This document shows, piece after piece, positions 28,881 to 33,057 of a DNA stretch of 64,000 bases. Both the position numbers and the translations under genes were made by a program. The stretch's first letter is position 1; the number at the start of each line of letters is the position of its first letter. The stretch is from NCBI RefSeq assembly GCF_053078305.1, contig NZ_CP166879.1, one strand, 5' to 3'. The notes below the pieces were generated by a model. That model searched no databases. It saw only the letters and a list, made by a program, of their open reading frames with translations, and was not told the DNA's origin.

Positions 28881-31031
28881 ATGGATACGAAAAAACTATT
28901 CAAGCACATACCCTGGGTGATTCTCGGAATCATCGGTGCATTCTGCCTCGCGGTAGTTGCATTACGTCGGGGGGAGCACGTCAGTGCCCTGTGGATCGTG
29001 GTCGCCTCTGTGTCGGTGTATCTGGTGGCGTATCGCTACTACAGTCTGTACATCGCCCAGAAGGTGATGAAACTCGACCCTACGCGCGCGACGCCTGCGG
29101 TTATTAACAACGACGGTCTGAACTATGTTCCGACCAACCGTTACGTGTTGTTTGGTCACCACTTCGCCGCTATCGCCGGTGCCGGTCCGCTGGTTGGTCC
29201 GGTGCTCGCCGCGCAGATGGGCTACCTGCCTGGCACGCTGTGGCTGCTGGCGGGGGTAGTGCTGGCCGGTGCGGTACAGGACTTTATGGTGCTGTTTATC
29301 TCCTCTCGCCGTAACGGCGCATCTCTCGGTGAGATGATCAAAGAAGAGATGGGGCCAGTACCGGGGACTATCGCGCTGTTTGGCTGTTTCTTAATCATGA
29401 TCATCATCCTAGCCGTCCTGGCGCTGATTGTGGTTAAAGCCCTGGCCGAAAGTCCGTGGGGTGTCTTCACCGTTTGCTCAACCGTACCGATTGCGCTGTT
29501 TATGGGTATCTACATGCGCTTTATCCGTCCGGGGCGTGTGGGTGAAGTCTCTGTTATTGGTATCGTGCTGCTGGTTGCCTCTATCTACTTCGGTGGCGTG
29601 ATTGCTCACGATCCGTACTGGGGTCCGGCACTGACCTTTAAAGACACCACCATTACCTTCGCGCTGATTGGCTATGCGTTTGTTTCCGCACTGCTGCCGG
29701 TGTGGCTGATCCTCGCACCGCGCGACTATCTGGCAACCTTCCTGAAAATCGGCGTTATCGTCGGCCTGGCGCTGGGTATCGTGGTGCTGAACCCGGAACT
29801 GAAAATGCCTGCGATGACCCAGTACATTGACGGTACTGGCCCGCTGTGGAAAGGCGCTCTGTTCCCGTTCCTGTTCATCACCATCGCCTGTGGTGCGGTA
29901 TCTGGCTTCCACGCGCTGATCTCTTCCGGTACGACGCCGAAACTGCTGGCTAACGAAACCGACGCGCGTTTCATCGGCTACGGCGCAATGCTGATGGAGT
30001 CCTTCGTGGCGATTATGGCGCTGGTTGCAGCGTCCATCATCGAACCGGGTCTTTACTTCGCGATGAACACTCCGCCTGCTGGCCTTGGCATCACCATGCC
30101 TAACCTGCATGAAATGGGTGGCGAGAACGCGCCGATCATCATGGCGCAGCTGAAAGACGTTACCGCACACGCGGCAGCGACCGTCAGCTCCTGGGGCTTC
30201 GTGATTTCGCCAGAGCAGATCCTGCAAACCGCGAAAGACATTGGTGAGCCTTCTGTCCTGAACCGTGCAGGTGGTGCGCCGACGCTGGCGGTAGGTATCG
30301 CTCATGTGTTCCACAAAGTGCTACCGATGGCTGACATGGGCTTCTGGTATCACTTCGGTATTCTGTTCGAAGCCCTGTTCATCCTGACCGCGCTGGATGC
30401 GGGTACCCGTTCTGGCCGCTTTATGCTGCAAGATCTGCTGGGTAACTTCATCCCGTTCCTGAAAAAAACCGACTCTCTGGTTGCCGGTATCATCGGTACT
30501 GCGGGCTGTGTGGGTCTGTGGGGCTACCTGCTGTATCAGGGCGTGGTCGATCCGCTGGGCGGCGTTAAGAGCCTGTGGCCGCTGTTCGGTATCTCCAACC
30601 AGATGCTGGCAGCCGTAGCGCTGGTACTGGGCACCGTTGTGCTGATTAAGATGAAGCGCACCCAATACATCTGGGTAACTGTTGTTCCGGCTGTATGGCT
30701 GCTTATCTGCACCACCTGGGCGCTGGGCCTGAAACTGTTCAGCACCAACCCGCAGATGGAAGGCTTCTTCTACATGGCAAGCCAGTACAAAGAGAAGATT
30801 GCTAACGGTACTGACCTGACGGCGCAGCAGATTGCCAACATGAACCACATCGTTGTGAACAACTACACCAACGCGGGCCTGAGTATTCTGTTCCTGATTG
30901 TGGTGTACAGCATCATCTTCTACGGTTTCAAAACCTGGCTTGCGGTGCGTAACAGCGACAAACGTACTGACAAAGAAACACCGTACGTTCCAATCCCGGA
31001 AGGCGGCGTGAAGATCTCTTCGCACCACTAA
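28881..31031 (+). CDS. btsT: CstA-family pyruvate/H+ symporter
   Basis: 716 aa from MDTKKLFKHIPWVILG; multi-TM CstA-like. Confidence 0.9.
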   Translation: MDTKKLFKHIPWVILGIIGAFCLAVVALRRGEHVSALWIVVASVSVYLVAYRYYSLYIAQKVMKLDPTRATPAVINNDGLNYVPTNRYVLFGHHFAAIAGAGPLVGPVLAAQMGYLPGTLWLLAGVVLAGAVQDFMVLFISSRRNGASLGEMIKEEMGPVPGTIALFGCFLIMIIILAVLALIVVKALAESPWGVFTVCSTVPIALFMGIYMRFIRPGRVGEVSVIGIVLLVASIYFGGVIAHDPYWGPALTFKDTTITFALIGYAFVSALLPVWLILAPRDYLATFLKIGVIVGLALGIVVLNPELKMPAMTQYIDGTGPLWKGALFPFLFITIACGAVSGFHALISSGTTPKLLANETDARFIGYGAMLMESFVAIMALVAASIIEPGLYFAMNTPPAGLGITMPNLHEMGGENAPIIMAQLKDVTAHAAATVSSWGFVISPEQILQTAKDIGEPSVLNRAGGAPTLAVGIAHVFHKVLPMADMGFWYHFGILFEALFILTALDAGTRSGRFMLQDLLGNFIPFLKKTDSLVAGIIGTAGCVGLWGYLLYQGVVDPLGGVKSLWPLFGISNQMLAAVALVLGTVVLIKMKRTQYIWVTVVPAVWLLICTTWALGLKLFSTNPQMEGFFYMASQYKEKIANGTDLTAQQIANMNHIVVNNYTNAGLSILFLIVVYSIIFYGFKTWLAVRNSDKRTDKETPYVPIPEGGVKISSHH

Positions 31032-31040
31032 CCGTGTTTA

Positions 31041-31067
31041 GCCCCGCTTCGGCGGGGCTTTGTTCTT
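31041..31067 (+). terminator. intrinsic terminator after btsT
   Basis: GCCCCGCTTCGGCGGGGC hairpin followed by TTTGTTCTT. Confidence 0.6.
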
Positions 31068-31080
31068 ATCAGAGTGAACT

Positions 31081-31284
31081 ATGTTTGGTAACTTAGGACA
31101 GGCAAAAAAATATCTCGGCCAGGCGGCGAAGATGTTGATTGGTATTCCAGACTACGACAACTACGTCGAGCATATGAAGACCAACCATCCCGACAAGCCG
31201 TACATGAGCTATGAAGAATTCTTCCGCGAACGCCAGAACGCGCGCTACGGCGGCGATGGTAAAGGCGGTATGCGCTGTTGTTAA
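31081..31284 (+). CDS. yjiX: small protein DUF466 (CstA-associated)
   Basis: 67-aa ORF directly downstream of btsT. Confidence 0.85.
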
Positions 31285-31294
31285 TGGAGAGAGC

Positions 31295-32251
31295 ATGAAC
31301 CCGATTGCAGTAACCCTACTCACCGGTTTTTTAGGCGCGGGAAAAACCACCCTGCTGCGCCATATTCTTAACGAACAACACGGCTACAAGATTGCCGTGA
31401 TTGAAAACGAATTCGGCGAAGTCTCCGTTGATGATCAATTGATTGGCGACCGCGCCACGCAGATCAAAACGCTGACCAACGGCTGCATCTGCTGTTCGCG
31501 CTCCAACGAGCTGGAGGACGCGCTACTCGACCTGCTGGATAATCTCGACAAGGGCAATATTCAGTTCGATCGTCTGGTCATTGAATGCACCGGCATGGCC
31601 GATCCCGGCCCGATTATTCAGACCTTTTTCTCCCATGAGATTTTATGCCAGCGTTACCTGCTGGACGGCGTGATTGCGCTGGTGGATGCGGTACATGCCG
31701 ATGAGCAGATGAACCAGTTCACCATCGCCCAGTCCCAGGTTGGCTACGCCGACCGTATTCTGCTGACCAAAACCGACGTCGCAGGCGAAGCAGAAAAACT
31801 GCGCGAACGCCTGGCGCGCATCAACGCCCGTGCACCGGTCTACACCGTTACCCACGGCGACATCGACCTGGGCCTGCTGTTCAACACCAACGGTTTTATG
31901 CTGGAAGAAAACGTCGTCAGCACCAAACCGCGTTTCCACTTTATCGCGGATAAACAAAACGATATTTCGTCGATTGTGGTAGAACTGGATTACCCGGTAG
32001 ATATCAGCGAAGTTTCCCGCGTGATGGAAAACCTGCTGCTGGAATCGGCGGATAAACTGCTGCGTTACAAAGGGATGCTGTGGATTGACGGCGAACCTAA
32101 CCGCCTGCTGTTCCAGGGCGTCCAGCGCCTCTACAGCGCCGACTGGGACCGCCCGTGGGGCGATGAAAAACCGCATAGCACGATGGTGTTTATCGGGATT
32201 CAGTTGCCGGAGGAAGAGATTCGGGCGGCGTTTGCGGGGTTGAGGAAGTAA
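31295..32251 (+). CDS. yjiA: CobW/HypB/UreG-family metal-binding GTPase
   Basis: 318 aa from MNPIAVTLLTGFLGAGKTT (P-loop), CxCC motif. Confidence 0.9.
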   Translation: MNPIAVTLLTGFLGAGKTTLLRHILNEQHGYKIAVIENEFGEVSVDDQLIGDRATQIKTLTNGCICCSRSNELEDALLDLLDNLDKGNIQFDRLVIECTGMADPGPIIQTFFSHEILCQRYLLDGVIALVDAVHADEQMNQFTIAQSQVGYADRILLTKTDVAGEAEKLRERLARINARAPVYTVTHGDIDLGLLFNTNGFMLEENVVSTKPRFHFIADKQNDISSIVVELDYPVDISEVSRVMENLLLESADKLLRYKGMLWIDGEPNRLLFQGVQRLYSADWDRPWGDEKPHSTMVFIGIQLPEEEIRAAFAGLRK

Positions 32252-32284
32252 TTTTGGATGATGGCCGCCATGTGGCGGCCTGAA

Positions 32285-32587
32285 TTATTTTTTGTTCTGA
32301 TCGCGCAGCATCGCTTCACGTAAAATTGCGTTCAGGCGAGTTTGATAGCCTTTACCTGGTCGCTTCAACCATTCCATCACATCAGCATCAATACGCACCG
32401 AAGCCTGAGTTTTCAATGGCCGATAAAACTTACCACGTTCGGCGTTAGACCATTGCTCATCGCTGGAAGGTGGGATATCACTGTAATCAATATCTTCGTC
32501 GGATTTATTCGCCAGCGCCTTCAGTTCGGCCTCATGCTGCACATCGAGTGTAGAGGGTGCCCCTCGTTTATGTTTAACCATGCTCAT
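32285..32587 (-). CDS. BrnA-like antitoxin (DUF4415/CopG-like)
   Basis: About 100 aa from MSMVKHKRG; C-terminal RIDADVMEWLKRPGKGYQTRLNAILREAM; start overlaps the stop of the upstream toxin ORF. Confidence 0.65.
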   Translation of the reverse strand: MSMVKHKRGAPSTLDVQHEAELKALANKSDEDIDYSDIPPSSDEQWSNAERGKFYRPLKTQASVRIDADVMEWLKRPGKGYQTRLNAILREAMLRDQNKK

Positions 32588-32888
32588 AGCGACTCCTCTC
32601 TTTACGATCTGCTTTTCGTGCACTGATGATTCGAATAATTTCATTTCCGCTTTCGAAACGGATGGTATGCGCAACCAGAATAACCACGATACCGTGAACC
32701 AAGCCGATAGTCTGCCAGCGATACTCACCGTTTTCTATGCGATCTTGCTGTGACAAATGTTGTGGATCATCAAACACTAACACCGCATCTTCAAAGCGGA
32801 TGCCATGTTTCACCCGATTACTTTTGGCCTTGTTTGCATCCCATTCAAACTCCATTGGCATAGTTGCCATCCCTAATTGTATATACAA
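32574..32888 (-). CDS. BrnT-like toxin (DUF497, RelE/ParE superfamily ribonuclease)
   Basis: Motif EFEWDANKAKSNRVKHGIRFEDA...RIISARKADRKER typical of BrnT; several in-frame ATG starts (32888 to 32855). Confidence 0.65.
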   Translation of the reverse strand: MYIQLGMATMPMEFEWDANKAKSNRVKHGIRFEDAVLVFDDPQHLSQQDRIENGEYRWQTIGLVHGIVVILVAHTIRFESGNEIIRIISARKADRKERSRYEHG

Positions 32889-33057
32889 AAATGTATCTAC
32901 AATTATTCTGCAATTATAGCGTTGATGTTGGAAATAGCATCACGTTTTGGATAATCAACCATGAAATTGACAATGAGTAAGTTGGACTTGATTCATCCAA
33001 TAGAATTTCTCGCCTGACATGGCACACTAAACACCTCGCTGTCGTTAAGGGATTACC

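Follow-up and report, generated by a model that had tools for sequence, protein, structure and literature searches.

The 64,000-nt stretch of DNA analysed here (hereafter, the window) carries, on its minus strand, two overlapping genes for small proteins that belong to the BrnT and BrnA families, respectively:

32574-32861, minus strand: brnT, the toxin gene, encoding 95 aa (MPMEFEWDANK...RYEHG), with the stop codon TAA at 32576-32574
32285-32587, minus strand: brnA, the antitoxin gene, encoding 100 aa (MSMVKHKRG...RDQNKK)

BrnT matches the full Pfam profile PF04365 BrnT_toxin (1-77 of 77; E = 8.4e-25, 87.3 bits), formerly DUF497, and BrnA matches the full profile PF14384 BrnA_antitoxin (1-68 of 68; E = 2e-17, 63.8 bits), formerly DUF4415; the curated Pfam cut-offs for the two families are 34.5 and 26.1 bits, respectively. 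An earlier reading of this DNA from its letters only (hereafter, the sequence-only reading) had proposed a BrnT/BrnA-like pair, based on a BrnT signature (FEWDxxKxxxNxxKHG and RIISARxAxxxER) in the upstream ORF, a DUF4415-like downstream ORF, and a toxin-first order with overlapping stop and start codons, and had suggested a search with the DUF497 and DUF4415 profiles as a check. That search bears out the family assignment, with both proteins scoring above the cut-offs over the full length of the profiles. Furthermore, both parts of the signature are present in the toxin frame, as FEWDANKAKSNRVKHG and RIISARKADRKER, and brnT indeed lies upstream of brnA, with an overlap of 14 nt. Neither BrnT nor BrnA has a match in NCBIfam, which means that this collection lacks a dedicated model and is not evidence against membership of the two families.

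A megablast search with the locus, which is an E. coli locus, led to a 99.4%-identical chromosome, where the counterparts of 32574-32861 and 32285-32587 appear in the RefSeq annotation as a 'BrnT family toxin' (95 aa) and a 'BrnA antitoxin family protein' (100 aa), respectively. The exact sequences of BrnT and BrnA are each found on at least 1000 public contigs under the same family names, and the relatives of BrnA comprise 3842 representatives at 50% identity (E <= 0.001). Both genes are intact, and we consider it very probable that the locus is a chromosomal type II toxin-antitoxin operon of the BrnT/BrnA family, located on the minus strand. The pair is already known: it is an ordinary, widespread and database-annotated copy of this module, and the structure of its Salmonella orthologue has been solved. 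The present analysis provides a well-supported toxin start, a candidate operator and a conserved coupling junction, but otherwise adds little to what is a correct annotation.

Translation starts, gene junction and upstream region

In the mechanical list of ORFs, the toxin frame extends from 32574 to 32888 on the minus strand (104 codons, TTG start), and the second, overlapping frame ends at 32285. The span of 32285-32888 assigned to the pair by the sequence-only reading is thus right in comprising two overlapping ORFs, but its end at 32888 takes in 27 nt of what is likely to be the leader. The toxin ORF begins, in the minus-strand direction, with TTG TAT ATA CAA TTA GGG ATG GCA ACT ATG CCA ATG GAG TTT GAA TGG GAT, which includes three ATG codons (32870, 32861 and 32855) and one TTG (32888), rather than the four in-frame ATGs counted previously. 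The signals discerned around the two genes are as follows:

32870-32874, minus strand: AGGGA, resembling a Shine-Dalgarno sequence and preceding ATG 32861 by 8 nt, read from the sequence
32574-32600, minus strand: gene junction, with the brnA Shine-Dalgarno sequence and the overlap within the 3' end of brnT
32862-32957, minus strand: brnTA leader/promoter region, from pairwise and four-way DNA alignments
32913-32918, minus strand: -10 box with the consensus sequence TATAAT, from a relaxed scan, lacking a good -35 box
32874-32905: inverted repeat with arms of 14 nt (TAATTGTATATACA / TGTATCTACAATTA) separated by 4 nt, 93% complementary, from a repeat search; candidate operator for BrnA

The second ATG, at 32861, is most likely the coding start of brnT because of its distance from AGGGA, the conservation of both elements in Citrobacter and Salmonella, the RefSeq call, which also places the start at 32861, and the crystallised Salmonella chain 7vd7_A, the first residue of which is the one after the Met of 32861. 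Three other candidates were considered and rejected, namely, TTG 32888, which lacks a ribosome-binding site; ATG 32870, which AGGGA (32874-32870) directly abuts and which reads ATA in Citrobacter and has no counterpart in Salmonella; and ATG 32855, which both genera share, because of its distance of 14 nt from AGGGA.

The Shine-Dalgarno sequence of brnA, GAGAGGAG (32600-32593), falls within the end of the brnT coding sequence and precedes by 5 nt ATG 32587, from which the overlap of 14 nt is counted; a start at the second ATG, 32581, with an overlap of 8 nt, is a possible alternative. Both the junction sequence GAGAGGAnnCGnTATGAGCATGGTTA and the ribosome-binding site of brnA are invariant among E. 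coli, Citrobacter, Salmonella and a plasmid copy from K. aerogenes. The overlap, together with this invariant junction, suggests that brnT and brnA are translationally coupled.

Homology between E. coli and Citrobacter begins abruptly near 32957, ~96 nt upstream of the brnT start, and the leader is at least as conserved as the coding sequence in this comparison. The TATAAT box (32918-32913) is conserved in both Citrobacter and Salmonella. A strict sigma-70 scan found no promoter on the minus strand, and the TATAAT recovered by the relaxed scan is not accompanied by a good -35 box, so that the brnTA promoter remains putative. Between the -10 box and the brnT start lies the inverted repeat (32874-32905), which is perfect in Salmonella and contains one mismatch in the window copy. 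The 64-kb window has one occurrence of its two-arm core pattern, versus 0.01 expected, and the single 12-nt palindrome TTGTATATACAA, with two mismatches allowed, is no rarer in the window than expected by chance. On the K. aerogenes plasmid, the core, ATTGTnnATAC-N6-GTATATACAAT, has been retained within otherwise unrelated DNA. The inverted repeat is therefore a likely candidate for the BrnA operator, and its conservation, along with the invariance of the putative DNA-binding half of BrnA, points indirectly to autoregulation, in which BrnA or the BrnT-BrnA complex would act at its own promoter. The Acidovorax homologue of the antitoxin does not bind its own promoter (PMC10714953). At the other end of the pair, 4 nt beyond the brnA stop codon, a hairpin (32263-32280) with 7 bp, all of them GC, is followed by a T-run on the plus strand and looks like the terminator of yjiA; on the minus strand, this hairpin has no U-tract.

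The antitoxin consists of a toxin-binding N-terminal part (residues ~14-58) and a putative ribbon-helix-helix (RHH) DNA-binding part (residues ~59-97). Residues 15-58 match 7vd7_B (75% identity, E = 1.5e-16), the chain that was co-crystallised with the Salmonella toxin. The values of pN are 0.10-0.18 for the N-terminal half of BrnA and 0-0.01 for its C-terminal half. In an AlphaFold2 model of BrnA, computed from an alignment of 70 sequences (mean pLDDT 83.8), residues 61-100 are predicted with very high confidence and comprise an extended segment followed by helices 68-75 and 81-99. A Foldseek search against the PDB with this model did not recover RHH folds, and the best non-self PDB match of the BrnA family profile, to the RHH domain of NikR, is weak (E = 0.34) and spans exactly the C-terminal segment. 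Each of these lines is weak when taken individually, but jointly with the published statement that BrnA carries a C-terminal RHH domain (PMC11980606), they support the prediction of a CopG-like RHH in the C-terminal half, in agreement with the CopG-like C-terminus that the sequence-only reading had remarked upon.

Chromosomal setting and distribution

On one flank, the pair is bordered by yjiA, which encodes a GTPase (NCBIfam PRK11537). The other flank is occupied by a variant of the immigration-control region. The features noted on this side are as follows:

33058-34224, plus strand: gene for a 388-aa protein with a C-terminal Mrr_cat nuclease, PADLOC candidate PDC-S02 (E = 6.8e-207)
34288-35043 and 35040-35903, plus strand: hsdM, split into two ORFs that match positions 2-86 and 95-311 of the Pfam N6_Mtase profile
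40795-40871, minus strand: symR, antisense RNA (Rfam RF01809, 94.3 bits)
40866-41204, plus strand: symE, toxin (Pfam SymE_toxin), forming a type I pair with symR
43242-44186, minus strand: gene for a 314-aa YhgA-like/Transposase_31 protein, the counterpart of which in the 99.4%-identical genome is annotated as an Rpn family recombination-promoting nuclease

The gene for the 388-aa protein is divergent from brnT and occupies the slot of the 304-aa mrr of K-12. It is followed by hsdM, hsdS, hsdR, symE and symR, with symE/symR located downstream of hsdR, as in K-12, whereas the gene for the YhgA-like protein is found at the opposite end of the restriction region. In the 99.4%-identical genome, RefSeq marks the same hsdM as 'frameshifted; internal stop', which, together with the split observed here, suggests that the type I restriction-modification system is probably inactive.

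The sequence-only reading had placed the pair next to a restriction cluster. The adjacency is real, but a link beyond position finds no support in Citrobacter, where the pair again adjoins yjiA and is otherwise flanked by an OmpA-like and an unknown gene instead of restriction genes. With the yjiA side alone being kept in Citrobacter, the pair is tied to the constant border of a variable region and does not belong to a restriction cassette. About a third of E. coli strains have the pair at this site. Within E. coli, the pair is carried by 2112 of the 5426 complete genomes, always in a single copy, and 2111 of the 2112 copies are chromosomal; in K-12, brnTA is absent and mrr lies directly beside yjiA. 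Query coverage is at least 80% in 1780 of the 2112 genomes, and in most of the remaining ~330, the locus is matched in two pieces (72% coverage). In the single two-piece case that was opened, E. coli SMN152SH1, brnT is a 96-nt pseudogene (2824-2919 in that locus) and brnA is intact; loss of brnT that leaves an orphan brnA is the pattern expected of toxin-first decay. Relatives on plasmids amount to 762 PLSDB records, mostly from Acinetobacter, with the addition of small enterobacterial plasmids. For a 93-aa protein of E. albertii, there is no contig on record. Overall, the comparison of these loci identifies the pair as a long-standing, dispensable occupant of the yjiA edge and not as cargo of the restriction cluster.

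With the same molecular mechanism, the pair could nonetheless serve as an anti-phage (abortive infection) or island-stabilising module tied to the immigration-control region. Such a role would fit the direct contact of the pair with the PDC-S02/Mrr_cat nuclease and the type I hsdMSR cluster, the position of the Salmonella pair beside mrr and hsdRMS, and the discussion of toxin-antitoxin modules of the RelE/ParE superfamily as defence toxins (PMC11980606); the abundance on plasmids, in turn, fits addiction or stabilisation. We regard this possibility as unlikely, however, given that the adjacency is explained by the fixed edge of a hypervariable region and that the Citrobacter neighbours are not restriction genes. 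Moreover, neither BrnT nor BrnA has a match among the 5027 defence models of PADLOC-DB 2.0 (E <= 0.01), and the pair is therefore not filed as a defence system. Finally, phage records contain no true phage copy, the single 'phage' match being a Salmonella chromosomal contig. The pair keeps its place at the yjiA edge in Escherichia, Salmonella and Citrobacter, and it is conceivable, though distinctly improbable in our view, that it has a function linked to the hypervariable region next to it. It might then provide the restriction systems with an abortive-infection back-up or, alternatively, be an addiction-like anchor that shapes the gain and loss of the adjoining defence cassettes.

Selection on the pair and predicted mode of action

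Both brnT and brnA are under strong purifying selection. In comparisons with the Salmonella and Citrobacter orthologues, pS is 0.58-0.76 and pN is 0.05-0.10 for the two genes, with dN/dS of ~0.02-0.07 where computable; for brnT, pN is 0.07-0.09 and synonymous sites are saturated. The residues relevant for the RNase activity of Brucella BrnT are Asp6, Glu7, Lys9, Arg41 and Glu78 (PMC5086665), and four of the five are kept here, as Asp8, Lys11, Arg48 and Glu88. In Acidovorax, a Lys-His pair and a C-terminal Glu are essential for the toxin (PMC10714953), the former corresponding to Lys18-His19 of the window protein. Asp8, Lys11, Lys18-His19, Arg48 and Glu88 are invariant across five aligned sequences, and the position of Brucella Glu7 is occupied by Ala here and by Ser in the plasmid copy.

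The replacement of Glu7 by Ala, that is, of one of the five Brucella RNase residues, would be compatible with a domesticated or attenuated remnant, in which the genes are intact, the toxin is harmless and the proteins are kept as a regulator or binder. The same could be said of the dispensability of the pair across E. coli, including the ~330 genomes in which brnT appears truncated and brnA intact, and deletions of chromosomal toxin-antitoxin modules are often without phenotype (PMC7280312). However, pN of 0.07-0.09 combined with saturated synonymous sites is unexpected for a decaying gene, the remaining RNase residues and the Lys-His pair are invariant, and a toxin gene that is lost while its antitoxin gene persists is what would be expected if the toxin is harmful. 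Furthermore, the position of Glu7 varies between Ala and Ser within the clade and, therefore, Glu is not a family-wide requirement at this site. Thus, a harmless remnant is, in our judgement, highly unlikely. That the two ORFs are open by chance or reflect a misreading of opposite-strand genes, for which the plus-strand shadow ORFs in the mechanical list are the sole argument, is vanishingly improbable in view of the Pfam E-values (1e-17 to 1e-25), the orthologue crystal structure, the lack of an Rfam family at the locus (at the gathering threshold, symR is the sole match within 31000-42000, with none at brnTA) and because the exact proteins are present in the databases and their orthologues combine saturated synonymous changes with few amino-acid changes, as expected under purifying selection, which places the pair far beyond chance.

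If the locus is a type II toxin-antitoxin operon of the BrnT/BrnA family, as we prefer to read it, brnT and brnA would be expressed as one transcript from the promoter with TATAAT at 32918-32913. The first product, BrnT, would be a small RelE-like (BECR-fold) ribonuclease that degrades RNA, blocks translation and stops growth; its fold is assigned from sequence, through the ~88% identity to 7vd7_A over 94 residues. BrnA, with its start 14 nt within the end of brnT and behind a strong ribosome-binding site, would probably be translated together with the toxin, and its N-terminal segment (~14-58) would wrap BrnT and neutralise it. The C-terminal RHH of BrnA is predicted to dimerise and to bind the inverted repeat at 32874-32905, where BrnA or the BrnT-BrnA complex would repress its own operon. 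Conversely, a drop in the antitoxin supply would release free BrnT. Toxin-first order, a C-terminal RHH and autoregulation have been described for the BrnT/BrnA family (PMC11980606, PMC10714953), and, for the window pair, the Brucella and Acidovorax homologues are the source of our inferences on RNase activity and toxicity, on neutralisation by BrnA, and on operator binding and the promoter. In the literature searched, STM4528/STM4529 are mentioned in lists only, and no experimental study of the orthologue from E. coli or Salmonella came to light; toxicity and rescue data on an enterobacterial orthologue would be new, though hardly surprising.

Comparison with known BrnT/BrnA systems

Residues 2-95 of BrnT match PDB chain 7vd7_A over 94 residues (E = 8.3e-53). 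According to the Foldseek description, 7vd7 is a Salmonella Typhimurium toxin-antitoxin complex released in 2022. The 7vd7 sequence with an added Met is absent from the protein collection, and its identity was established via a Salmonella contig and the Foldseek description: 7vd7_A is identical to STM4528 at 93 of 94 positions, and STM4528/STM4529 sit between mrr (STM4527) and yjiA (STM4530). Given this identity and the same mrr-yjiA slot, a syntenic orthologue of the window pair has already been crystallised. The structure shows that the Salmonella orthologue forms a toxin-antitoxin complex. The window pair is nearly identical to this solved complex, with 85-88% identity for the toxin and, for the antitoxin, 84% overall and 75% over the crystallised segment; it shares with STM4528/STM4529 the gene order, the junction sequence, the leader and the inverted repeat. 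The two loci differ in the upstream neighbour, which is a K-12-type mrr on the same strand in Salmonella and the divergent 388-aa PDC-S02/Mrr_cat gene in the window, and in the recorded start of BrnA, which is the second Met in the Salmonella record, whereas the window BrnA is called from the first.

The BrnT/BrnA pair of Brucella abortus (Heaton et al., in 2012) is the founding member of the family, with 3u97 being the structure of its BrnT. This structure matches the window BrnT with E = 1.2e-4. The two systems belong to the same Pfam families, are bicistronic with the toxin first, have an antitoxin with a C-terminal RHH (PMC11980606) and share the Asp, Lys, Arg and Glu RNase residues. However, the two toxins are only ~33-34% identical, the Brucella Glu7 is replaced by Ala here, and two loops of the enterobacterial toxin contain additional residues, with its C-terminus being extended as well. 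For Brucella, a 2:2 toxin-antitoxin complex (PMC5086665), RNase activity, promoter binding and stress induction have been reported, whereas the window pair is known from its sequence. The Acidovorax citrulli pair Aave_1720/Aave_1719 similarly includes a BrnT-like RNase, with the essential Lys-His pair and C-terminal Glu, and an antitoxin with a BrnA domain, the two being encoded by overlapping genes (PMC10714953). It differs in that its antitoxin has RNase activity of its own, in addition to leaving the promoter unbound (PMC10714953); nothing suggests such activity for the window BrnA.

The copy on the K. aerogenes plasmid p35_E (5.4 kb) is 74% identical to the window pair in BrnT and 64% in BrnA, and has the same junction and operator core, with a nearly invariant C-terminal half of BrnA (residues 57-97). 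By contrast, the plasmid copy adjoins a RelBE pair on a small replicon, where a role in plasmid maintenance is plausible, whereas the window copy is chromosomal and occupies a fixed site, and the promoter regions of the two are unrelated outside the operator core. Given that both the putative DNA-binding half of BrnA and the candidate operator core are near-invariant between the chromosome and the plasmid, cross-regulation of resident and incoming BrnTA modules is conceivable.
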